Assembly (NCBI GenBank): GCA_965218095.1
Contig: OZ244587.1
Span: 1,664,001 to 1,728,000, forward strand
Length of the DNA: 64,000 bases
Source of the DNA: Candidatus Poribacteria bacterium
GTDB taxonomy: Bacteria > Poribacteria > WGA-4E > PCPOR2b
Direction: 5' to 3'
Position numbers and translations under genes: made by a program. The notes below the pieces were generated by a model. It was not told where the DNA came from. It searched no databases and saw nothing but the letters and a program-made list of their open reading frames with translations. Below are positions 33,543-51,372 of the stretch, piece after piece (the stretch's first letter is position 1; each line of letters begins with the position of its first letter).

Positions 33543-33950
33543 TTAGTCTCGCTTGGTTCGGCTGAGTAGCCACTTCTCTGGTTGATTCCCCATTGAAACC
33601 AGTTTGCCGATAATCTGATCGTACTTTCTGAATAGACGGCTGTAGCCTTCCCGGCTGATGTAGCCACATTTTTCACTATATTCGAGCCAAACCTGGGTTT
33701 CAGCCGCTTCGCCTTCCGCCTCGTTCATCTTATTGACGAAAGCGGCTTCATATTTCCGACGTCTCCAGCCCTCAGCAATCTGACCCGAGACAGACCGTGA
33801 TGAACGACGAATCTGATCGGTTAGGCTGTATCTCTCCTCTACGGGAAACGATTTCGAGAGTTCATAGATCTCCATCGCAGCTTCGACGGAAAGTTTATAG
33901 ACATCAAGTTGCCAATGATATTGAATCCTCTCGCTCATTCGCTCCTCCAA
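33543..33950 (-). CDS. Four-helix-bundle protein (23S rRNA IVP/TIGR02436 family)
   Basis: [31 protein letters not shown]. Confidence 0.9.
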
Positions 33951-35023: not shown

Positions 35024-35956
35024 ACCCAAGTTGCGACCTATTCATCGAATATGTGAGTGAACTGAATATGTGAGTGAACTCAGAGCTGATTGATACTGCT
35101 AGCCAATACAAACAAGACCACTTTCAATTCAAATCCGTGTTGCGTTACTGCATGGATTGAACGTGGAAGCAGTTTGTTAATCAAACTGCCAGCCGTCTCA
35201 ACAGACTTACGATGGTAATTAGCCAAGTAGGTCTCCCATGGTGGATACAGCCGCTTGGAATTCTTCTTGCGTACTGGCTTTAACGACTGATGTAACAATA
35301 TCTTCTATCTCATAATTATTGTATGCTTTGTCACCATAGCCCGGTGGCAAGTCGAAGTCAAACCACTGTAACCCTTCAACGTCCCCTGTACTGGCTGGGG
35401 TCACAAAAAATTCAACAGGGTGTCGACTCGCAGTCACTAGCAGATGAACTTTCAAGCCATAGAAATACCGACGTTTGGACGCTTGATAGCCTCGATATGC
35501 CTTATCGGTATAGATTTTTGACCGACGAATGCGGAACAAACAGCAATTGGTATGGTATCCAGTGCATAGATTTTCTGTTGATTAAGTTGCACATAGCTTC
35601 GTCCCAAGATTTTGAACAATGTGGTGAACATCGGTTTAATTCGATGAAGTCGTCGGTTTAATCGACTTTTTGAAAGCATCTTGGGTATATAGCCATGAGT
35701 CTTTAGAAAGTCACAAGTGGTTTGCAAGTTTGCCCCGAAGAACAACGCAGCGACGATGCCGGTGGTCATCACTTCGGCATCAGACATCTGCGTTTGTGGG
35801 TGTGGTTTTGAGTTGAGTGCTTCTAAGAGCTTGTCACAGAGATAGAAAATGGTTACAATTTGGATGTCCATGGGTTTCTCCTTTGAGGTATTATGGTTTG
35901 GATTACCTCTACTTTAACGGAAAACCCATGGATTTTCAATTACTAGCAACTTGGGT
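35024..35956 (-). mobile_element. IS982-family element, transposase frameshifted
   Basis: TIR ACCCAAGTTGC / GCAACTTGGGT; 7-bp duplication TATTCTA; fragments MSDAEVMT, SKSRLNRR, YFYGLKVH, GDKAY, SVET in three frames. Confidence 0.9.
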
Positions 35957-36016
35957 TATTCTAGCAATTTCACCTTTATTTTTCAACCACATTCCCTAAA
36001 CCTCATCATGAGCACT

Positions 36017-37342
36017 TTATCCCAGATCGCGGCGAAGTTCCGCTTCCGATGCCAAGTCCGCGACCGTCCCCGGCGGATGCTTATACCAGCCGGGGTCGTC
36101 ATAACTGGTGAGATTTTCGCGGATTTTGACGATGGTAAACATCCCGCCCATCGTAATGTAGTCAAACGGACCGTATGCCCCGACCATGGGAATGCTGTTT
36201 TTCGGCACAGCCATGTGCCCCGATTCGACGTGAATCCCATGTTCACCCATGCCGTGCTCGCCCATCGTCATATACGCAGGCAGAAGTTGGCGGATTTTCT
36301 GGTCAATGTTGCCCTTTTTGATGCCGACCACGTTTAAAAATTCGTGCCCCATCTGGTTCATGACATGATGCGTCATGTGGCAGTGCATCGCCCAATCCCC
36401 CGGATCGCTGGCAACGAACTCAACATCGCGGGTTGTCCCCACCGGAACGAGAACTGTTGTTTCTGGCCATTGTCCTGAAGTCGGGATTCGCCCACCTTCT
36501 GTAGCGGTGATTTTGAAGTAGTGCCCGTGCAGGTGAATCGGGTGATGGTCCATCGCCGAAAGATTGCCGAAGCGAATCCGCACCCGGTCGCCCAGTTTGG
36601 CGACCAGCGGCTCGGTTCCGGGGTAACACTTCGCGTTCATGGTTAGGATATTGAAATCGTTCATCTCGTTAGGGTTTGGCGTGGACGTCCCCGGATCGAT
36701 CCGCCACTCGCTTAACATGATGGCAAAGTCCCGATCTACTTGGTAATGGGGGTCAGGTTTTCTGGGGTGGAAAACCATCATGCCGAGCATCCCCATCGCC
36801 ATCTGGGTCATCTCGTCGTGGTGGGAATGGTACATATACGTGCCTGATTGTCGAATTGTCCACTCGTATTTGAAGGTCTCCCCCGGCTGGATAGCTCGCT
36901 GGGTCAACCCACCCACACCGTCCATCCCATTCGGTAGAAAGACGCCGTGCCAGTGAACAGCGGTTGGTGCCTTGAGCCGGTTGGTCACATAGATGCGGAC
37001 GCGATCGCCTTCCACGGCTTCAATGGTCGGTCCGTGCACCTGCTCGTTGTAACCCCAGCACTTCGCTTTCAGACCAGGGGCAAATTCATGCCAGACTTCT
37101 TCAGCGATAAGGTGAAAGACTTTTACCCCATCAACAATCTTCCACGGTAGCGGTGCACCGTTCGGTGTGACGACCGGCGTGTAGTCTTTATCAGGGATAC
37201 CCGGGTCCATCGCCGGACGATTTGAATTGCCTGCGTAGGATTTCTGCCATTGGGATTGGGCGGCTTCTACACCTCCCGAAGCCCCGAAAGCGAAAGCCCC
37301 GCCAACGAGAGCACTCGTTTTCAAAAGATCCCTTCGGTTCAT
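36017..37342 (-). CDS. Tat-exported two-domain multicopper oxidase
   Basis: NRRDLLK; HWHG, YHSH, HPIHLHGH, HCHMTHH; Met/His-rich tail. Confidence 0.93.
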   Translation of the reverse strand: MNRRDLLKTSALVGGAFAFGASGGVEAAQSQWQKSYAGNSNRPAMDPGIPDKDYTPVVTPNGAPLPWKIVDGVKVFHLIAEEVWHEFAPGLKAKCWGYNEQVHGPTIEAVEGDRVRIYVTNRLKAPTAVHWHGVFLPNGMDGVGGLTQRAIQPGETFKYEWTIRQSGTYMYHSHHDEMTQMAMGMLGMMVFHPRKPDPHYQVDRDFAIMLSEWRIDPGTSTPNPNEMNDFNILTMNAKCYPGTEPLVAKLGDRVRIRFGNLSAMDHHPIHLHGHYFKITATEGGRIPTSGQWPETTVLVPVGTTRDVEFVASDPGDWAMHCHMTHHVMNQMGHEFLNVVGIKKGNIDQKIRQLLPAYMTMGEHGMGEHGIHVESGHMAVPKNSIPMVGAYGPFDYITMGGMFTIVKIRENLTSYDDPGWYKHPPGTVADLASEAELRRDLG

Positions 37343-37343
37343 C

Positions 37344-38801
37344 TCAATGTCCTCCTTCCTGGTTTGTCAATGACAGTTCAGCCATGCGGTGAAGCCGGTA
37401 GGGTCGAAAAGTGAATCCCACTAGCCGACCGTTGAGAATCTGTTCCAGTTCCGCTCGTGCGACATGATAATTGTAGAGCGACTGGATATATTCCCGACCG
37501 GCGTCAATCTCGCGCTGTTTTGCGAGTAACAGGCGTAACGCACCGACCTGCATTGCATTGTACTGTAGTTGGACCTGTTCGAGAATCTTCTCTTGGAGTG
37601 GAAGTATTTCATTCTGATAAGACAGTGCGGTCTGTCGAGCGGTCAATAGGCGACGTCGCGCGGCGCGAACCGCGGAGCGGATCTCAACCGCCAGTGCGTG
37701 GTATTCACCCTGCTGTCGGCGTAACTCTGCCGCTGCCGCCGCTCGCTGCCCCTGATTTCGATCGAAAAGTGGAATCTCAAACCCCAGTGCGGGTCCCGCT
37801 GCCCACGCTCCTGCTTCCTGCTCAATCTCCCCACCGATTTCCAAATTCGGCACGAGAGACATCGCTTTTGCCACGCCGAGTTGTTTCCCGATGGAAACGA
37901 TGCCCCGCCGTGCAATGGCAAGGTTGATGCTGTTTTCAATCGCCCGCTTTTCGAGGTTGTCGAGTCCTATTGCTTCAGCAGGAATGTCGCGGAGTCGAGA
38001 TTCGACTCTCCACGCCGTATCCTCTCCCCACAACCCCATCAAAGCGTTGAGTTGCTCACGGTTTTCAGCAAGCGTGACCTCCGCAGCAGCGAGTTCTAAC
38101 TTCGATCGCTCATAGGACGTTTTTTGAAGCAGTAGGTCTAGCTCCGGGACATTCCCCGCTTCGACAAGCTGTTGGGCGAACTCGTAACCCGCCTGCGTTG
38201 CCAAGACGATCTGCTGGAACATTTCCAACATCTGCTCATCAGCTTGAACGCGGTAGAATGCCATTCGCGTTTCCCCTGCCAAATCCACCACGGCAGCCGT
38301 CATGCGCAGTTTCGCTGCCTCGAACTGGGATTTCGCTACCGATTTGCGCATCGGCGCGTACAGCATGGAGAGGAAATCCATTTCGACTTCAAAGGTGTAC
38401 GTGCTGTTGTCACGGAGTTTGTCCACCATCTCCTCGTCGGAATCAGAGGGGCCGAAGGTCGTTGCGCCGTGAAAAACCGGATTCGAGAACAAGCCAGCGT
38501 CAACAATGGCAGCGTGGGCAATCCCCAATTCCTCATAGGTCGCTTGCAGACGATGGTTATTCAACAGCGCAATTTGAACGGCAGCATCGACGGTCAGCGG
38601 CTTATCCAACAATTCTCTAATTGCCTGAGCCGCTTCATCATCCGCAGCCGTGTCCGCATTCCAGTGAATACGGTAGCCAATACGGTCATCCACCTGCCGC
38701 TGGACTTCGCTGAAACCCGTTTTTTTCGACACACCGGCGCAACCGATCAGGACGAATGACGCCGCGAAGAACAACACGGCGCATCTCATTTTTTCGTTCA
38801 T
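37344..38801 (-). CDS. TolC/OEP-family outer-membrane lipoprotein (metal efflux type)
   Basis: Lipobox LIGC; AVQIALLNN, EIPLFDRNQG. Confidence 0.9.
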   Translation of the reverse strand: MNEKMRCAVLFFAASFVLIGCAGVSKKTGFSEVQRQVDDRIGYRIHWNADTAADDEAAQAIRELLDKPLTVDAAVQIALLNNHRLQATYEELGIAHAAIVDAGLFSNPVFHGATTFGPSDSDEEMVDKLRDNSTYTFEVEMDFLSMLYAPMRKSVAKSQFEAAKLRMTAAVVDLAGETRMAFYRVQADEQMLEMFQQIVLATQAGYEFAQQLVEAGNVPELDLLLQKTSYERSKLELAAAEVTLAENREQLNALMGLWGEDTAWRVESRLRDIPAEAIGLDNLEKRAIENSINLAIARRGIVSIGKQLGVAKAMSLVPNLEIGGEIEQEAGAWAAGPALGFEIPLFDRNQGQRAAAAAELRRQQGEYHALAVEIRSAVRAARRRLLTARQTALSYQNEILPLQEKILEQVQLQYNAMQVGALRLLLAKQREIDAGREYIQSLYNYHVARAELEQILNGRLVGFTFRPYRLHRMAELSLTNQEGGH

Positions 38802-38822
38802 CTAGTAAACTCCTCGTCTGTT

Positions 38823-39707
38823 TTAATAGTTATGTTCGTGTGCATCGTGTCCATGAGGGTCTTCCGATTCATCCTCGTGATGCTCCATCTCCTCGTGCTC
38901 CTGTGTTTTGTGCATGTCATGATGGTGATGCTCGTGTCCACCTTTTTCCTGCTTATGCTCGTGAGACTTCATGTCCTCGTGTCCAGACATATCGGTGCTT
39001 GAGACGGGCATCTGCATTTTCGCGCTGTGGCACTTGAGCATCGCGCTTCCGAAATACGGGTTGCGGACGTCCTCGCCGACTTGCAGCCAGATACCCCCTT
39101 GCGGGACATCGGACGCCATACCGCACACGTAGCTGTAGACCGGACTCTCGTAACTTGCTGGCACACTGACAGCGGCAACGAAGTGATTGAGGACATCGCT
39201 CAACGAACCGTAGGCGACACGCGCAGCTTTGATGTCCGAGAGATCGCCGACTTCATGTCCATGGTCATGGATGGCCTCGGTATGGGCTTCGTAAGAATGC
39301 CACAACTCGGCGGGCACTTCGTGTTCAAGCGTATGGAGGGCTTCGAGCATCGCGTGCGCCTGCGCGTTGACATCTTCCATCGTGTCGGAAGCGAGTTGGT
39401 CGCCGATGACGAAATAGGCGTCTAGCATCATCGCCAGCGCTTCTTCGCCTTCCTCCGACAACGACGCAGCCCTGTGATGCGCTGCGACGCCTTCTTCAGT
39501 CATCGCCATCTCTTCCTTTAGCGTGTCTGGTGGAATTCCAAAGACAGTCTGCGGCGCACCAGGATGCGCCGGATGGTCCTGTGGAGTAGCAACTTCGACT
39601 GTTTTGCCGCCGCATCCAACGACAAGCGACGATACAATGATGAGTCCAAGGATAAGTGTAGATACGGTTCGTTTATGGAAGTTGAAAACCCTGGATAACA
39701 TGAGCAT
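38823..39707 (-). CDS. DUF3347-like His-rich metal-binding lipoprotein
   Basis: Lipobox VVGC; YVCGMA...WLQ...VRNPYFGSAMLKC; His-rich C-terminus. Confidence 0.85.
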   Translation of the reverse strand: MLMLSRVFNFHKRTVSTLILGLIIVSSLVVGCGGKTVEVATPQDHPAHPGAPQTVFGIPPDTLKEEMAMTEEGVAAHHRAASLSEEGEEALAMMLDAYFVIGDQLASDTMEDVNAQAHAMLEALHTLEHEVPAELWHSYEAHTEAIHDHGHEVGDLSDIKAARVAYGSLSDVLNHFVAAVSVPASYESPVYSYVCGMASDVPQGGIWLQVGEDVRNPYFGSAMLKCHSAKMQMPVSSTDMSGHEDMKSHEHKQEKGGHEHHHHDMHKTQEHEEMEHHEDESEDPHGHDAHEHNY

Positions 39708-39832
39708 AGCCTCCGTTTTGGGTAAAAAATGATCAAAGATAGGTTTTGGGCGTTTCAACATAGACGCGCAGAAACGCCGATCGATCAATAGATTTTGAGT
39801 CTTTCAGATTTGGGAAAGCGTGGAGGAGAAAA

Positions 39833-40300
39833 TCAGGTGAAAGGAAACGGAGGGGCGCGGGGGGAAATCTGCTGAGTAGGAGAATCTTTGTAGGGTTTGT
39901 AGGCGAATTGAAGATAGGAAGTGAAAGAAACGGAGTCGGAAGAAATCTTAGGAATTGCAGGGATTAGCGCAACAAATGAGAACTTGCCTTTTTGTATTTG
40001 TGAGACGAGCTGAGGTTCGCTGGCTCCGAGCAATTCCCACCGGTTTAAGCAACAATTGTCGTCTCCATCGTTTTGGCTTTCGTGGGGGCGGGCTGGTTGA
40101 TTTTCAGCATGACAGCAAGTTGGATTGTCTGTTTCAGCGGTGGTTTGTGACAAGGTCAGAGACTGCCGATAGATCGAGGCTTTATCGGATTCGGCGTCTC
40201 CACAGTCTGCTTCTCGGAGTGCTGGACATAGCACCGGGCAAAGAAAATAAACTGAAGATATCGAGAGTAAAACCAGCGCGTAAACGTCCTTGAATTTCAT
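39833..40300 (-). CDS. DUF2946/CutF-like leader protein with C-terminal PRAPP
   Basis: Hydrophobic N-terminus, CPVLC, CCH, CC, ends ISPRAPPFPFT; GGAGG RBS. Confidence 0.8.
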   Translation of the reverse strand: MKFKDVYALVLLSISSVYFLCPVLCPALREADCGDAESDKASIYRQSLTLSQTTAETDNPTCCHAENQPARPHESQNDGDDNCCLNRWELLGASEPQLVSQIQKGKFSFVALIPAIPKISSDSVSFTSYLQFAYKPYKDSPTQQISPRAPPFPFT

Positions 40301-40386
40301 CAAATTACCGCCTCCCATGCAATAATACTTCTACGCAATAATAATAATTATACCCGGCTTTGCGTATGGAAGTCAAATTTTTCGCC

Positions 40387-40555
40387 AGGGGCATTTAATT
40401 CTCGGCTTTGACCTCTCCCCCGGCCCCTCCCCCCGATTTCTCGGGCAGAGGGGAGCAAAGGCCTCCCGAAAACACCGTCTGGCGCGAGATTTGTCTTCCC
40501 TTCTTTGCAGCGGAGAGGGGGTGAGGAGATGAGGTTCGGAGAATTAAACGACCCT
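40387..40555. mobile_element. Small MITE-like element with CCTCTCCC/GGAGAGG palindromes
   Basis: Ends AGGGGCATTTAATTCTC / GAGAATTAAACGACCCT (15 of 17 match). Confidence 0.6.
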
Positions 40556-40595
40556 AAATTTTCGCTCAGAAAAAACTTCCAAACTCTTGCAGAGA

Positions 40596-40953
40596 CTAAC
40601 CCATAACCGCCTCTTCCTGTTCAACCGCAATCGAGAACCACCTATACAGCGCCGGAATCACTAACAACGTCAAAATGGTTGATGTGACCAAACCACCGAT
40701 CACCACCGTTGCCAAAGGACGTTGTACCTCGCTGCCAGTACCATGGGACAAGACAATGGGGACGAGCCTAAGCCCAGCCGCGGATGCTGTTATCAGCACG
40801 GGACGTAGCCTCAAGCAGGCGCTGCGAATACATGCGTCGGTCATGGGAATTCCCTCCTGTAGGAGCTGGTTGAGGCAGGTCACCAAAACCATGCCATTGG
40901 CGAGAGCAATCCCGAAGAGCGCAATGAAGCCTATCGATGCCGGGACAGACAGG
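40596..40953 (-). pseudogene. C-terminal remnant of CusA/CzcA heavy-metal RND pump
   Basis: SIGFIALFGIA..NGMVLV, RLRPVLITA, GSEVQRPLATVVIGGL. Confidence 0.85.
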
Positions 40954-40954
40954 T

Positions 40955-41065
40955 TTTGCCAACTCTTTGAGAGACCCGGAAGCTAAGATAAATCGTTTGA
41001 TGAAGTGAAGATCTCCTTCGCTCAACGCAGACAGCCACTTCGGGATTTGCGCTTCGCTTACAACC
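40955..41065 (-). pseudogene. DUF2089-like N-terminal fragment
   Basis: PKWLSALSEGDLHFIKRFILASGSLKELAK. Confidence 0.55.
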
Positions 41066-41139: not shown

Positions 41140-41455
41140 GCTTGATGGGGTTGGCACGCCGAAGCAGACCCTTCTGTTGCAGAACTATCTCAACCCGTTC
41201 AACCCTGAAACGTGGATTCCGTATCACCTTTCGGAAGCTGCTCCTGTAACCCTATCAATTTACGACACGACCGGACAACGGATACGGACGCTTTCGCTTG
41301 GATTCCAGTTAGCAGGCTTCTATCAAAGCCGTCCACGCGCTGCCTATTGGGATGGGTGCAACGACTTGGGTGAACGGGTTTCAAGCGGGGTCTATTTTTA
41401 CCAATTGTCCACCCCATCTTTCTATCGGATGAAGCGGATGGTTATTGTGAAGTAG
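41140..41455 (+). pseudogene. Orphan Poribacteria-type C-terminal domain
   Basis: LLQNYLNPFNPETWIPY...AAYWDG...GVYFYQL; no N-terminal part. Confidence 0.75.
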
Positions 41456-42095: not shown

Positions 42096-43204
42096 GAGGG
42101 GTGTGCATAGTAGTTCATTGGAAAACAGCCGCCATATGAGAGATATTGCGAGCAGGTAACTTCCATATGGCATTGGCAATCATAGCCACTTGCACTGATA
42201 ACACCCCGATAGCTAAACAACAGCGTACATTGAAAAACCCCTTGACCGGTAACTGCTTCTGTTGAGGAGTGGTGCCTATCACTTTAGCAATCAAGTCAAA
42301 CAACGGTTCAACCGAACTGCGACGTTTGCTTAAACAGAGACGCTGCTTGGGTTGGTTGATAAATCGATGATACGCCTTGGCAAACCGTCCCTTTGTCCAT
42401 CTAAGTGCCGGGGTAATCAAAGCGACTTGTGCCTTCGCCCAACGACGGATACGGTCTGCTTGGGTATAGGCATCATCGGCAGTGAGTGTCTGCGGTGAAA
42501 GTTGTGTCAGAATCTCAGACGCTTTAGCATCTATCGCCCAACTTTCGGAGACCGACGCACGGTGCACAGTTATCAGTGTTGGGAACGCACCTTGTGTGCA
42601 GATAATGTGAAGTCCGTAGCCATAGACCCAGCCATGATAACCACTCTTGCTCCACGTGGCATCGGTGTCGAGGTTGCGTAGATGTTTAGGTGCTTTTCCT
42701 GCTTTGCGGTCAGTTTGATGCCAGACGGGTCCTCGTGCCTTAAATAAACTTTTGTCGGCTACCAGATGAGCCAAGTTGAATTGTTGGGACAAGTCAGTGG
42801 CATACTGACCGATAAACAATACAAATGCCTCTATCACTTCATATAATGCCTTATAGCGACGTGCAATCGTGGTTCGATGAGGGGGCTGTTGCCACCCCAG
42901 CATTTGTAACACTTCTGGGTGATTGATTAGCCACCGCCATTGCGTTTTGAAGCCATAGATGCCGTGAAACTGCATCAACATGAAGAAAATGATAAACGAG
43001 GTGGTTGAATATGTCAATGGTTTTGCGTGTGTGACACCTGGTTTGTCAATACGGTGTTGCATAAACTGCTCAAAGAGTTGCATAATAAGAGTGACATAAT
43101 CAGCCAACATTGGTCTTTGTACCATATTGGGGCTCCTTTTGCTATGATAACAATAGGAAACCCTTTTGGCTTGATTATGTCAACTATATTTATGCACACC
43201 CCTC
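42096..43204 (-). mobile_element. Insertion sequence (DDE_Tnp_1-type)
   Basis: Perfect 14-bp TIR GAGGGGTGTGCATA / TATGCACACCCCTC; 9-bp duplication ACCTAAACT. Confidence 0.9.
42115..43125 (-). CDS. DDE transposase
   Basis: VADKS, DTDATW, GWVYGYGLH, TADDAY, RRSSVEPLF. Confidence 0.88.
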   Translation of the reverse strand: MVQRPMLADYVTLIMQLFEQFMQHRIDKPGVTHAKPLTYSTTSFIIFFMLMQFHGIYGFKTQWRWLINHPEVLQMLGWQQPPHRTTIARRYKALYEVIEAFVLFIGQYATDLSQQFNLAHLVADKSLFKARGPVWHQTDRKAGKAPKHLRNLDTDATWSKSGYHGWVYGYGLHIICTQGAFPTLITVHRASVSESWAIDAKASEILTQLSPQTLTADDAYTQADRIRRWAKAQVALITPALRWTKGRFAKAYHRFINQPKQRLCLSKRRSSVEPLFDLIAKVIGTTPQQKQLPVKGFFNVRCCLAIGVLSVQVAMIANAIWKLPARNISHMAAVFQ

Positions 43205-47999: not shown

Positions 48000-48302
48000 T
48001 TGCAGAACAATCGAACCCACATCAATCCAACCGGCTGGGTAATTGCAATTGGGATTTTTTATTCTCTGATGGCAATAAGCCTTGTCGGGCTCACATATGA
48101 ACACGACCACAATATCCTCGGTTCGACTGATTGTTCTGCTTGCTTCTTCAGTGCCAACCACCTCGGTATTGAGCTCCATGCTGTTGACTTCACCAATCTC
48201 GATACCTGCATCTCAATTCACTCCCCTTTCGACCTTACTTTCATCTTCACGACACCTGTCAACAATATCCAAAGTCGTGCCCCACCAGCGTTCTCCATTT
48301 AA
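48000..48302 (+). CDS. DUF2946/CruR-like leader protein with C-terminal RAPP
   Basis: TM segment, HDH...CSAC, ends IQSRAPPAFSI. Confidence 0.8.
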   Translation: MQNNRTHINPTGWVIAIGIFYSLMAISLVGLTYEHDHNILGSTDCSACFFSANHLGIELHAVDFTNLDTCISIHSPFDLTFIFTTPVNNIQSRAPPAFSI

Positions 48303-48442
48303 TCTCCTAATCTAACCCATATCTCTGCTTTTTTGACCCAATCAATTTCTATCTTTTCCCTGGCTGATCTGTATCTGACTTTGGCGGTAGTCTGCCTAAG
48401 TCGTGATGCCGGGAAAAACAATTTATCTATATTTTGGAGGAC

Positions 48443-49018
48443 ATGATGTTTACCTGTTTTTTTAGATTCACTCTGTTACTACTCGCATTTGCTGTGCTGT
48501 TCGCCGCTTGTAGCGAAGATGATAATCCCATTGTTGACCATGACGACGAACCATTTCATGCCGATGCCGACGGTTTTATCCTCAAGGTTGACGGGAACGA
48601 GATCTACCGCCAATTTCAGGGGACGCATACGGGAGGTATCACCCTCAAAGTCGGGGAGGAACTGGATGTTCTCGCCGTGTTCCTTAACCAGCATGAAGAG
48701 GAATTTTTCCCTGAAGCCCCGGAAGAGGGCGAAGATCACGACCACGACGATCATGGTGAGGAAGAGGTGTTTGCCTTAGCTCTCAGCGGATTTGATTCAT
48801 CAACCATTGAAGTACACCTTTACGAAAGTGAGGAGGACGACCATGAAGATGATCACGCTGAAGAAGGCGAAGACCACGACGATGAGCTCGCCGAAAAATT
48901 TACCTTTGAGGTGAAAGGGCTTAAAGCCGGAAAAACAGAGTTCAAACTCCAGCTATTGCACGGCGACCATCCTGATTTCACGGCGGCGTTCTCGACTCCC
49001 GTAACGGTTACACCGTAG
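48443..49018 (+). CDS. His/Asp/Glu-rich lipoprotein (metal-binding candidate)
   Basis: Lipobox FAAC; DHDHDDHGEEE; LLHGDHPDF; GGAGG RBS. Confidence 0.85.
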   Translation: MMFTCFFRFTLLLLAFAVLFAACSEDDNPIVDHDDEPFHADADGFILKVDGNEIYRQFQGTHTGGITLKVGEELDVLAVFLNQHEEEFFPEAPEEGEDHDHDDHGEEEVFALALSGFDSSTIEVHLYESEEDDHEDDHAEEGEDHDDELAEKFTFEVKGLKAGKTEFKLQLLHGDHPDFTAAFSTPVTVTP

Positions 49019-49161: not shown

Positions 49162-51372
49162 ATGAAACGCTTAATCTTTTGTCTATTCACCATTCTCCTG
49201 ACTCATAATGTAGACGGGGTATCCTTGTCCCGCCCCGTTTCCGTTTCAGGGCAGGTGATTGATGCTGAAGCGGAAACTCCCCTTGTGGATGTCCATGTAT
49301 CCCTGTTACGCAAAGCAGAAGGCGCATCTGTGTTCCAAACCGATAGGACTGGACAGTTTCGGTTTGATGGAATTGCGGTGGGAACGTATACACTTCGATT
49401 CAATCACGTTGGCTATGAAACGTTAGATCAAGAAATCGTTGTCAAGGCGGACTCGACAACGATGGCAGTGAAATTGAAACGCAGTCCGCTCCAACTTGGA
49501 GAGATTGTTGTTACACCCGGTGACGAGGAGCACGCTCATTTTGAGAAAACCACCGACCTCAACCTTTCAGCGCAGCAGCTTGATCAGCAAATGGGAGTAA
49601 CCATAGCCGAGACGCTTAGCGGAGAGGTAGGGATCGCCCAGCGGACGATGGGGCGAGCAACCGCGCGTCCGGTCATCCGGGGCATGGGCGGTGATCGGCT
49701 GCTTATCCTCGAAAATGGCGGGCGCACCGGCGATAAATCAGCGTCCTCAGCAGATCACGCGGTTGCAATTGACCCAACCACCGCGACAAATATCGAGATT
49801 ACGCGCGGACCGGCGTCGCTAATTTATGGCTCAAGCACACTCGGCGGTGTCGTCAATGTCAAGCGCGAGACCATCCCGCAAACCCTGCCCCATCGTCCAA
49901 CGATGAATCTCACATTTCAGAGTGAGTCGGTCAATTCAGGGCTGACCGGAACGACAGAGCTGACGATTCCGATTGGTAACCTTGCGTGGAGGCTGGAGTT
50001 GAACCGCCGCCACACCGACGATACACATACCCCCATCGGTATTTTAGAAAACACGTCGCTATCGCAAACTAATTTTGCGACCGGTATCTCAATGGTCAAG
50101 GATTGGGGACACATTGGGATTTCAGGCGGTAATTACCGTTCAGATTACGGGATTCCCGGTTCGCCGGAAGGACACATCCAAGGCGTCACTATCGACCTCG
50201 ACCGCCAACGGTATGAAGGTAATTTTGAGTATGGGTTTCAGCAGTCGTTTCTTGAGAAACTGAAACTGCACTCGACCTACACACGCTATCAGCATCAGGA
50301 GATTGAATCAAACAGCACGCTCGGTGTTGAGTTCGGCCTATTGACATACAACGCGTCCGCATTGGCTTATCTGCACGGCGATGCAGTTGCCGGGGTTTGG
50401 GGCGAGTACCGTGACCATGCGACGGGCGGGTTTTACTGGACGCCGCACACGCGGGAGATGTCCTTGGCGGGTTTCTATTTCAAACAGAAGCGGCTCAACG
50501 CCTCCTTTACGTTACAAGGTGCAATTCGCTACAACATCAGACGGGTTGAGCCATTTGTGGAAGGTGCTGTCATCCGCGCAGGAACGGTGCAACGACGGGA
50601 CTTCGGCGGCATGTCGAGTGCGGTTTCGAGTATCTATCATTGGAACGACAACTTGGGAACTGGTGCTACCTTGATGAAGACGTTTCGCACACCGGGAATC
50701 GAGGAACTCTTTTCAGATGGTCCGCATCTCGCAGCCTACTCCTACGAAATTGGTAATGCCGAACTCGGTTCGGAGGATGGCTTCGGGACAGAGGCATTTC
50801 TGCGCTATGCTGCCGAGCGCGTGAAACTAAATCTCACCGTTTTTCGCAACCAGATTTACAGTTATCTGATTCCGACCAACACAGGCGAAAAGGAGTGGGG
50901 GAGTGGTGCGGCGGGGTGGCTGTGGATATATCAATACCGGGGACAAGAAGCCATCCTTGACGGAGCCGAATTTAGCATTGACACTGAAATCGTCCCACGA
51001 TTTCAGGCACAGGTGCGCATGAGTTACGTCAAAGGGACTTTGACAACCAGTGGATCACCGCTTGAACGCATCCCGCCGCTCAACGGAAAAGTGGCGCTGC
51101 GATACGTAACGCAGCCGCTAAACTTTCACTTCACGGCGCGATTTTCAGACGACCAGCATCGGCTCGGCGAATTTGAAGAGGCGACCGACGGGTACATCGT
51201 CTACGATGTGGGCTTGCAGTTGGCGTTTCCGATGTGGCGACTTCAGCATCAGATGGTTGTCGCGGTCGAGAATATCTTCGACACCGAATACCGTCAGCAC
51301 CTTTCGAGAATCAAATCAGTAATGCCGGAGCCGGGACGGAACGTGAAATTTTTATATCGGCTGAATTTTTAA
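49162..51372 (+). CDS. TonB-dependent receptor, ZnuD-like metal uptake
   Basis: N-terminal extension, RPVIRGMGGDR, SADHAVAID, IEITRGPASLIYG, ENIFD, EPGRN, terminal F. Confidence 0.92.
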   Translation: MKRLIFCLFTILLTHNVDGVSLSRPVSVSGQVIDAEAETPLVDVHVSLLRKAEGASVFQTDRTGQFRFDGIAVGTYTLRFNHVGYETLDQEIVVKADSTTMAVKLKRSPLQLGEIVVTPGDEEHAHFEKTTDLNLSAQQLDQQMGVTIAETLSGEVGIAQRTMGRATARPVIRGMGGDRLLILENGGRTGDKSASSADHAVAIDPTTATNIEITRGPASLIYGSSTLGGVVNVKRETIPQTLPHRPTMNLTFQSESVNSGLTGTTELTIPIGNLAWRLELNRRHTDDTHTPIGILENTSLSQTNFATGISMVKDWGHIGISGGNYRSDYGIPGSPEGHIQGVTIDLDRQRYEGNFEYGFQQSFLEKLKLHSTYTRYQHQEIESNSTLGVEFGLLTYNASALAYLHGDAVAGVWGEYRDHATGGFYWTPHTREMSLAGFYFKQKRLNASFTLQGAIRYNIRRVEPFVEGAVIRAGTVQRRDFGGMSSAVSSIYHWNDNLGTGATLMKTFRTPGIEELFSDGPHLAAYSYEIGNAELGSEDGFGTEAFLRYAAERVKLNLTVFRNQIYSYLIPTNTGEKEWGSGAAGWLWIYQYRGQEAILDGAEFSIDTEIVPRFQAQVRMSYVKGTLTTSGSPLERIPPLNGKVALRYVTQPLNFHFTARFSDDQHRLGEFEEATDGYIVYDVGLQLAFPMWRLQHQMVVAVENIFDTEYRQHLSRIKSVMPEPGRNVKFLYRLNF

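Follow-up and report, generated by a model that had tools for sequence, protein, structure and literature searches.

Can the ribosome-binding site (RBS) of a copper-related operon be masked by the very codons on which a ribosome is expected to stall? This question is raised by a locus of a Candidatus Poribacteria bacterium, located within a stretch of 64,000 nucleotides (contig OZ244587.1 of assembly GCA_965218095.1, positions 1,664,001 to 1,728,000), hereafter the window. Here, a small cysteine-rich leader open reading frame (ORF) ending in an RAPP-type arrest motif precedes, on the same strand, genes for a putative lipoprotein, a TolC-like efflux protein and a multicopper oxidase. A preliminary description of the locus, based on the DNA letters and ORF translations, proposed that a ribosome stalled at RAPP frees the RBS of the next gene, giving a metal-sensing translational switch. 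We find that the arrest codons and the Shine-Dalgarno (SD) sequence of the lipoprotein gene form a helix that is conserved and covaries across homologous loci. With a probability of roughly 0.7, we consider the leader to be a stall-operated metal switch, in which the RAPP-arrested ribosome would cover the anti-SD and free the operon RBS, with the cysteines sensing metal as in the leader CutF.

Arrest codons complementary to the downstream Shine-Dalgarno sequence

The leader protein of 155 residues reads MKFKDVYALVLLSISSVYFLCPVLCPAL...CC(62-63)...CC(83-84)...ISPRAPPFPFT*. Its basic N-terminus (K2 and K4) is followed by a hydrophobic run of ~21 residues, with CPVLC at the C-terminal end of the run. 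The hydrophobic N-terminus, CPVLC, the two CC pairs and RAPP are thus all present as first described, except that the PRAPP segment is not terminal: four residues, FPFT, stand between RAPP and the stop codon. The alignment of homologues starts at the Met at position 40300; an alternative upstream ATG at 40318, which would yield a leader of 161 residues, has no SD. An AlphaFold2 (AF2) model of low confidence (mean predicted local distance difference test score, pLDDT, 48.6) consists of a helix spanning residues 3-31, the remainder being disordered. The protein has no match in Pfam or, at E ≤ 1, in NCBIfam, and an Rfam scan of 39400-40700 at E ≤ 1 yielded no match either.

On the mRNA, the codons for Pro-Pro-Phe, CCUCCGUUU (39853..39845), form an exact reverse complement to the SD of the next gene, AAACGGAGG (39718..39710), just as the preliminary description had it. 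The 9-mer occurs twice in the window, both strands considered, these being the two arms themselves, and 0.57 occurrences are expected from shuffled sequences. The minimum free energy (MFE) fold of 39690-39880, a check that had been suggested along with the pairing, includes both the 9-bp helix and the hairpin predicted between its arms (-37.4 kcal/mol, z -2.53; 1 of 200 shuffles as low). This pairing occludes the SD of the next gene with a 5' strand made up of the codons that would occupy the P site, the A site and the +1 position of a ribosome stalled at RAPP. As for the RBS itself, the assignment of AAACGGAGG as the SD stands, but the start codon at 39707 assumed initially lies only 2 nt from it, and ATG 39701, positioned 8 nt after GGAGG and conserved in homologues, is the likely start of the lipoprotein. 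A string taken as the 16S rRNA 3'-end motif occurs 6 times in the genome.

Contigs from four sponge metatranscriptome libraries, all from one study, cover the leader (39842-40300), and one such contig (39662-39913) extends from the anti-SD to past the SD; none reaches beyond 40365. The ends, strand and level of the transcripts are not readable from these contigs, and the uncovered parts carry no meaning. One RNA-library contig has A>G (plus strand) at window position 39841, by which the third codon of the tail would encode Leu, as in most homologues, instead of Phe; the change looks like a strain variant.

Conservation of the pairing across homologous loci

Comparison of homologous loci bears out both the pairing and its covariation, which had been named as a further check. 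With the register anchored on the first Pro codon and GGAGG, 29 of the 30 close loci that have the lipoprotein gene show a helix of 9-14 positions; L010 contains one internal A-A mismatch, L028 retains 6 bp only, and L035 keeps 12 bp despite a spacer of 201 nt. RNAalifold, applied to 28 close loci (L006 was dropped for having no downstream gene nearby and L028 for an insertion of ~100 nt), returned one consensus helix only, that between anti-SD and SD, with 10 pairs. The inner hairpin was recovered by RNAalifold from 19 sequences of genera g1 and g7, with 7 bp and changes on both sides at three of the seven pairs. In thermodynamic models, the helix core is paired with a probability of about 1.0 in most close loci. 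Furthermore, none of ~495 other windows forms a better duplex with the SD window than the 27-nt stall window does; this holds for 26 of the 29 close loci and for 3 of the 11 divergent ones.

Judged from the sequences, synonymous sites are the clearest signal of RNA-level selection on the pairing codons. P150 is encoded by CCT in 29 of 30 loci, P151 by CCG in 29 of 30 and F152 by TTT in 28 of 28. In the other six Pro columns, codon entropy is 0.74-1.84, Arg148 uses five different codons, and F19 is encoded by TTT in 8 loci and by TTC in 22. Since F152 has yet to be incorporated when the ribosome arrests, the conservation of TTT speaks for pairing of the RNA and not for a role in the arrest peptide.

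Compensatory double changes are found in at least five lineages. In L024, CCUCCGCUU pairs with AAGCGGAGG, a U-A pair being replaced by C-G along with a Phe-to-Leu substitution; in L036, where the leader precedes a gene for an extracytoplasmic function (ECF) sigma factor, two pairs are changed in a helix of 11 bp (UCCUCCUCUUU with AAAGAGGAGGA); in L048, one pair is changed (CCUCCGUCU with AGACGGAGG); and in L021 and L010, the ninth position is G-C, not U-A. When SD arms were shuffled among 26 distinct arm pairs, the observed extension of the helix was reached in 0 of 5000 permutations, a figure inflated by the relatedness of the loci.

Two observations concern the more divergent loci. In the g17-type loci, a second short helix, ACCCGU with ACGGGU, was seen by eye. 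In L041, L043 and L047, an element with GGACTTACGC-type inverted ends, resembling a miniature inverted-repeat transposable element, is inserted between leader and SD and stretches the spacer to 220-440 nt.

A six-cysteine protein family unlinked by profile search to DUF2946

A word-based search retrieved 41 clusters of related proteins, nearly all of 154-155 residues, one of them with the source name Candidatus Poribacteria. Two alignments were built: A1, comprising the window protein and 31 of the 41 clusters (the ten omitted being the near-identical P0001 and nine others, mostly from short contigs), and A3, made up of the window protein plus 17 stored proteins and 14 sequences translated from loci. 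The A3 profile matched 40 proteins at E ≤ 1e-3 among 1.84 billion representatives, indicating that the family is small. Within the phylum, a match was found in 80 of 176 genomes; by family, matches occur in 22 of 28 genomes of f1, 10 of 11 of f2, 1 of 7 of f3 and 46 of 112 of f4, and in 0 of 17 genomes of seven other families. The genome to which the window belongs has one copy at that stringency, plus a distant paralogue found by motif.

This paralogue (G000:C1:139457-139939, minus strand), which lies outside the window, is a six-cysteine protein of the CPALMQGDC type that ends in ...SPRAPPHSPPKFSHI, with a tail of nine residues. The codons just after its RAPP hold UUCACCUC, which is exactly complementary to GAGGUGAA ahead of the following ATG, making the paralogue a third instance of an anti-SD within the stall footprint.

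Nine residues, namely, C21, C25, C62, C63, C83, C84, R148, P150 and P151, are invariant in all 32 sequences of A3, and divergent members carry RGPP in place of RAPP. Two spacings are nearly fixed among the 48 parsable loci of the 50 fetched: the last CC is separated from the Arg by 63 residues in 44 loci and by 62-64 in all 48, and the tail after PP has exactly four codons in 48 of 48. L033 of G054 and L034 of G042, second copies that fail the motif filters, stand outside the analysis. Of 79 stored proteins, 69 have both the motif (RAPP in 58, RGPP in 11) and a CC, and among these 69 the 63-residue spacing occurs in 59 and the 4-residue tail in 62; of the other ten, eight lack R[AG]PP and two are fragments lacking CC. 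The distance from CPxxC to the Arg varies from 103 to 160 residues, and the identity of the linker between subgroups is only about 20%.

The leaders stand directly upstream of same-strand metal-homeostasis genes, and the operons that they head fall into several types. Besides the lipoprotein-efflux protein-oxidase type of the window, other subgroups precede YtkA-like and FMN_bind-like genes or outer-membrane-barrel and YHS genes. In one genome, G029 (contig C95, locus L036), the leader heads a gene for an ECF sigma factor (Sigma70_r2/r4) followed by a small ORF with a Cys/His motif that looks like a putative anti-sigma factor.

R[AG]PP near the C-terminus, small ORF size and an N-terminal transmembrane or signal segment, all of which are found in this family, constitute the layout of RAPP-type arrest peptides. 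In a crude proteome of the genome to which the window belongs (5,343 ORFs), RAPP occurs 7 times versus 20 expected (0.35) and RGPP 2 times versus 18.4 (0.11), whereas the observed-to-expected ratios of the control motifs AAPP, KAPP and RLPP are 0.78, 1.26 and 1.14, respectively. This avoidance fits the two motifs being costly in this genome too.

Membership in DUF2946, for which a profile search had been proposed, is not supported by any of the comparisons made. The window leader has no match to Pfam DUF2946 (PF11162) at E ≤ 0.1, neither 18 divergent members (E ≤ 1) nor a set of 32 members (E ≤ 10) gave a single match to the DUF2946 profile, and a six-frame scan of the genome with this profile yielded nothing at the leader locus and noise elsewhere (E 5). 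In general layout, the invariant CPxxC, the two CC pairs and the C-terminal R[AG]PP resemble DUF2946/CutF-like leaders, but the ruler of 63 residues and the tail of four differ from the CruR-type arrangement of ~45 residues with RAPP three residues from the end. Lack of a profile match together with these two spacings makes the family an analogue or a very distant relative of DUF2946 rather than a demonstrable member, although profile-profile comparison could link the two.

A candidate stall-operated metal switch

The comparative evidence, including pairing, covariation, synonymous constraint and the invariant R[AG]PP, lends good support to the switch proposed in the preliminary description. 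The motifs, the two spacings, and the helix with its conservation and covariation are observed features of the loci. We propose that the leader acts as a nascent-chain sensor with six cysteines, directed to the membrane and disordered for the most part. As long as the mRNA is free, the codons for Pro-Pro-Phe would pair over about 125 nt with AAACGGAGG, locking the RBS of the lipoprotein-TolC-multicopper oxidase operon. Translation of the leader would arrest at R-A-P-P, with the CCU codon of Pro150 in the P site and the CCG codon of Pro151 in the A site, as in published toeprints, where the P site is occupied by the first Pro codon of RAPP and the A site by the second (PMC12992588). A ribosome halted there would keep 39853..39845 in its decoding centre and mRNA channel, where the anti-SD cannot pair, so that the SD would be freed and the operon translated; upon release of the arrest, four codons would remain to the stop, the ribosome would leave, and the helix would re-form.

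The duration of the arrest would depend on what the cysteines encounter. Given that copper detoxification is the task of the operon, we take copper, or a different thiophilic metal, to prolong the arrest and thereby to switch the operon on, as in CutF. The ribosome exit tunnel holds ~35-40 residues, and all six cysteines are at least 63 residues from the Arg at the point of arrest, hence outside the tunnel and probably beyond the translocon. A distance that exceeds the tunnel by roughly the length of a translocon fits periplasmic sensing, as in CutF, and not the cytoplasmic sensing proposed for CruR. We infer arrest, export, metal binding and the direction of the response as parts of this mechanism.

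Energy calculations gauge what the stalled ribosome might achieve. Averaged over 31 loci, opening the RBS costs 12.9 kcal/mol in the free mRNA, 7.3 if the assumed ribosome footprint alone is blocked, and 6.4 if everything upstream is blocked too; at the window locus, the cost declines from 11.2 to 6.9 and 6.5 kcal/mol, respectively.

Several points weigh against the switch. Even with the footprint blocked, the mean unpaired probability of the SD is still 0.07 and 6-7 kcal/mol are needed to open it; other C/U-rich stretches, such as CUCCUCC just after the stop, could recapture the SD. Within the 28 closest loci only one pair covaries, and both arms are also constrained by coding and SD function. 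Most g17-type (RGPP) loci retain a core of only 5-7 bp, with RNAalifold on six of them keeping only a 5-bp core; in six g18 loci (L037, L038, L041, L044, L045 and L049), no GGAGG-type SD and no pairing was found; and L006 has no close downstream gene. The negative DUF2946 searches count on the same side. The direction of the metal response is drawn from analogy and operon logic alone, and CruR runs in the opposite direction; arrest on Poribacteria ribosomes is likewise presumed by analogy. Finally, the RNA-library contigs are shallow (depth 2-6) and come from one study, and DNA carry-over is possible.

A more specific version of the mechanism can be put forward only tentatively, and we regard it as possible rather than probable. 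In this version, the six-cysteine proteins would be a Pfam-less, hitherto unrecognized family of membrane-anchored metal sensors, in which the 63-residue ruler places the last CC at the periplasmic mouth of the translocon, beside the CPxxC that ends the signal anchor on its outer side, at the moment when the ribosome reaches R[AG]PP; metal bridging both would stop translocation and hold the arrest, with the arrest codons themselves serving as the anti-SD. The leader would then be a portable module, which controls efflux/oxidase, YtkA and YHS/outer-membrane operons within a single phylum and in one lineage also an ECF sigma/anti-sigma pair. If so, this lineage would have a translational arrest sensor feeding a transcriptional cascade.

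Alternative explanations

An unlikely alternative, but one to be taken seriously, is that the cysteines report the thiol-redox or disulfide state of the periplasm: by pulling on the chain, oxidative folding would end the arrest, which would last longer if folding failed. Six invariant cysteines arranged in pairs would suit this role, and copper stress disturbs periplasmic disulfide chemistry. Genes for DsbA and thioredoxin are also among those before which RAPP/RGPP upstream ORFs are enriched (PMC12992588). However, all downstream contexts found in the present family are metal-related and none is Dsb-related, and the AF2 model shows no folded cysteine domain, the latter being a weak point given the low confidence of the model.

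We consider it rather improbable that the leader works like CruR, with the arrested ribosome mainly shielding the transcript from Rho, metal relieving the arrest and turning the genes off, and the SD pairing being secondary. CruR does combine RAPP, a Cys motif and a fixed ruler and does act through Rho (PMC9426467); at the window locus, the first ~30 nt after the leader stop are C-rich and G-poor, and the g18 subgroup, lacking a detectable anti-SD:SD pairing, must use another output. Yet, it would make little physiological sense for copper to shut off a TolC/multicopper-oxidase detoxification operon, and Rho shielding requires neither the conservation nor the covariation of the helix arms. Nor is there an intrinsic terminator-like site between the genes.

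There is only a slim chance that the leader is an ordinary exported copper-binding protein, with the helix merely coupling translation and RAPP being a harmless pause that senses nothing. Cys-rich periplasmic copper proteins exist, and since translation of the last codons opens the helix in any case, coupling does not call for arrest. But such a protein would not be expected to hold R[AG]PP invariant, four codons from the stop and 63 residues from the CC, while its linker drifts; furthermore, the motif is otherwise avoided in the genome, the protein is predicted to be disordered, and the same leader heads unrelated operons, including that of the ECF sigma factor. Chance complementarity can be virtually dismissed: although Pro-Pro codons are often CCNCC and SDs GGAGG, such that a U as the third base of the first Pro codon suffices for a CCUCC core, and several divergent loci retain the core alone, the extension past the core is conserved, synonymously constrained and covarying, and the 9-mer is present nowhere else in the 64 kb.

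Relation to known regulatory leaders

The precedents invoked in the preliminary description, CutF, CruR and ApdA/ApdP, are real and apt (PMC9973294, PMC9426467, PMC7897499). RAPP and RGPP are the most readily arresting motifs and resist elongation factor P, and a census of such motifs counts 118 RAPP upstream ORFs before multicopper oxidase genes versus 41 for AAPP (PMC12992588).

The closest counterpart is CutF-cutO of Rhodobacter capsulatus, where the copper motif, the Pro-rich stall and the SD masking have all been demonstrated genetically (PMC9973294; bioRxiv 10.1101/2025.02.05.636593), and 5,334 CutF-like proteins have been listed (PMC9973294). CutF, too, is a cis-acting exported leader with CxxxC and a C-terminal proline stall motif, and the helix-masked SD of copper-detoxification genes, a multicopper oxidase gene among them, is opened by the stalled ribosome (PMC9973294). 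Unlike the six-cysteine family, which has no DUF2946 match, CutF is a DUF2946 member; its anti-SD lies in an intergenic stem-loop, whereas here the arrest codons act as the anti-SD over about 125 nt; and its PPP-type motif is weak alone, in contrast to RAPP/RGPP here (PMC9973294). The present leaders are further set apart by six invariant cysteines, the 63-residue ruler and a lipoprotein, not an oxidase, as the first regulated gene.

CruR (Bp2923)-bfrG of Bordetella pertussis, a DUF2946 leader, shares RAPP near the C-terminus, a Cys motif, a conserved spacing and a copper-related operon (PMC9426467). In the paper describing it, DUF2946 is defined by CXXC, RAPP, ~45 residues (+/-1-2) between them and RAPP three residues from the end; the RAPP-dependent copper control operates through Rho, and sensing is proposed to be cytoplasmic and independent of the signal peptide (PMC9426467). 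CruR differs from the leader studied here in that its output is Rho-dependent termination, copper relieves the arrest, the spacing is 45 with three residues after RAPP, and the controlled gene encodes an uptake transporter (PMC9426467).

A second RAPP leader in the window, unrelated to the first, matches CruR far better. Located at 48000..48302 (+), it encodes 100 residues with a transmembrane helix, CSAC, 44 residues, RAPP and four residues before the stop, and precedes genes for a His/Asp-rich lipoprotein (48434..49018) and a TonB-dependent receptor (49162..51372). It has no Pfam match at E ≤ 1. Its family is present in 110 of 176 genomes of the phylum, with CxxC-44-RAPP-4 in 20 of 20 loci. 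In its MFE fold, GUUCUCCA, comprising the codons right after RAPP, pairs with the SD UGGAGGAC, with a z of only -1.06.

ApdA, ApdP and the proteins of the RAPP/RGPP census similarly are small ORFs with R-A/G-P-P near the C-terminus and an N-terminal hydrophobic segment (PMC7897499, PMC12992588, PMC10951233), and the census also reports avoidance of the motif in proteomes and enrichment of such upstream ORFs before metal genes, including multicopper oxidases (PMC12992588). For ApdA, ApdP and ApcA, by contrast, no SD-sequestering hairpin was predicted in the account given of them (PMC7897499). SecM-secA, MifM-yidC2 and VemP-secDF have in common with the present locus that an exported leader arrests and the stalled ribosome disrupts an SD-hiding stem (PMC7897499).

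The main text of the census contains 0 occurrences of Shine-Dalgarno, stem-loop or secondary structure, and the term Poribacteria was not found in nine of its ten supplement files (PMC12992588). Among the titles and abstracts listed by the literature searches, none describes arrest codons as an anti-SD or such a leader in Poribacteria. The statement that no such switch is described in this lineage thus agrees with the listed titles and abstracts, but the idea itself is less new than the preliminary description implied, considering that RAPP ORFs before oxidases have been tabulated (PMC12992588). What would be new is the metal-switch logic in a family unlinked by profile search to DUF2946, the general kind of switch being already known. 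Unlike the six-cysteine leader, SecM, MifM and VemP sense translocation capacity rather than metal, use other arrest motifs and rely on local helices, with no loop of ~125 nt.

The operon and its neighbourhood

The features of the locus are compiled in Table 1. The promoter-like sequence upstream of the leader has 11 of 12 consensus matches and is the best among nine sites found in 35800..41000. The leader indeed heads a run with TolC-like and multicopper oxidase genes, as first described, but the DUF3347 match of the lipoprotein (E 1.5e-4, 23 bits) lies below the Pfam cut-off of 25.5. The order leader-lipoprotein-efflux protein-oxidase is kept in three genera, two other genera being represented by the complete genomes G043 and G025. 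Past the oxidase gene, the window contains transposase fragments and then FMN_bind-like, Rieske and cytochrome b genes; in G043, the latter three follow the oxidase gene directly.

Table 1. Coordinates of the leader, the pairing arms and the operon genes in the window
Feature	Position	Strand	Basis or remark
Promoter-like TTGACT-18-TATAAT	40347..40376	-	Upstream of leader; consensus match only
Leader SD GGGAGG	40311..40316	-	10 nt before ATG at 40300
Leader ORF, 155 aa, six-cysteine R[AG]PP family	39833..40300	-	ORF list and homologues
Hydrophobic helix at the N-terminus (residues 3-31), presumably a signal peptide or signal anchor	40208..40294	-	AF2 model and sequence
Codons C21-P-V-L-C25 (CPxxC)	40226..40240	-	C21 and C25 invariant in 32/32 of A1 and of A3
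Codons C62-C63	40112..40117	-	Invariant in A1 and A3
Codons C83-C84, start of 63-residue ruler to R148	40049..40054	-	Invariant in A1 and A3
RAPP arrest-motif codons CGC GCC CCT CCG	39848..39859	-	R, P, P invariant; A replaced by G in divergent members
Anti-SD arm CCUCCGUUU (DNA CCTCCGTTT), codons Pro150 CCU, Pro151 CCG, Phe152 UUU	39845..39853	-	Sequence, fold, homologues
Four-codon tail FPFT and TGA stop	39833..39847	-	Four-codon tail in 48/48 loci
Inner 8-bp hairpin, GGCGTTTC 39778..39771 (also given as GGCGUUUC) with GAAACGCC 39756..39749	39749..39778	-	MFE fold
SD arm AAACGGAGG of lipoprotein gene	39710..39718	-	Sequence, homologues
Lipoprotein gene, putative first regulated gene, His-rich C-terminus, weak DUF3347 match	38823..39701	-	Pfam sub-threshold; lipobox-like VVGC
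TolC-like outer-membrane efflux protein	37344..38801	-	Pfam OEP, E 1.2e-33
Multicopper oxidase with twin-arginine translocation (Tat) signal	36017..37342	-	Pfam Cu-oxidase_3, _2, Cu-oxidase and TAT_signal

Gene remnants and mobile elements surround the operon (40596..40892, minus strand; 41177..41455, plus; 42115..43125, minus; 35219..35871, minus). The remnants include a 98-residue C-terminal fragment of AcrB/CusA type just upstream of the leader and a stand-alone FlgD_ig/T9SS-type sorting tail, and ORFs for DDE transposases flank the operon on both sides. Between the FMN_bind-like and Rieske genes, an ORF at 33543..33950 (minus strand) matches the 23S rRNA intervening-sequence protein family (E 5.5e-31).

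Implications

To date, metal sensing by arrest peptides has been elucidated for two DUF2946 leaders, both from proteobacteria; the locus described here would extend the same logic to an uncultured sponge-symbiont phylum. With the arrest codons being the anti-SD, arrest and RBS exposure would be coupled without an intermediate element, a design that is cleanly testable by synonymous and compensatory mutations. The contrast between the 63-residue ruler and the 45-residue ruler of CruR-type leaders, of which the window contains one, offers a direct means of asking whether the nascent chain encounters its ligand at the mouth of the tunnel or past the translocon. Finally, the family provides a recognizable signature that may serve to annotate copper regulons in genomes without obvious copper-responsive transcription factors.

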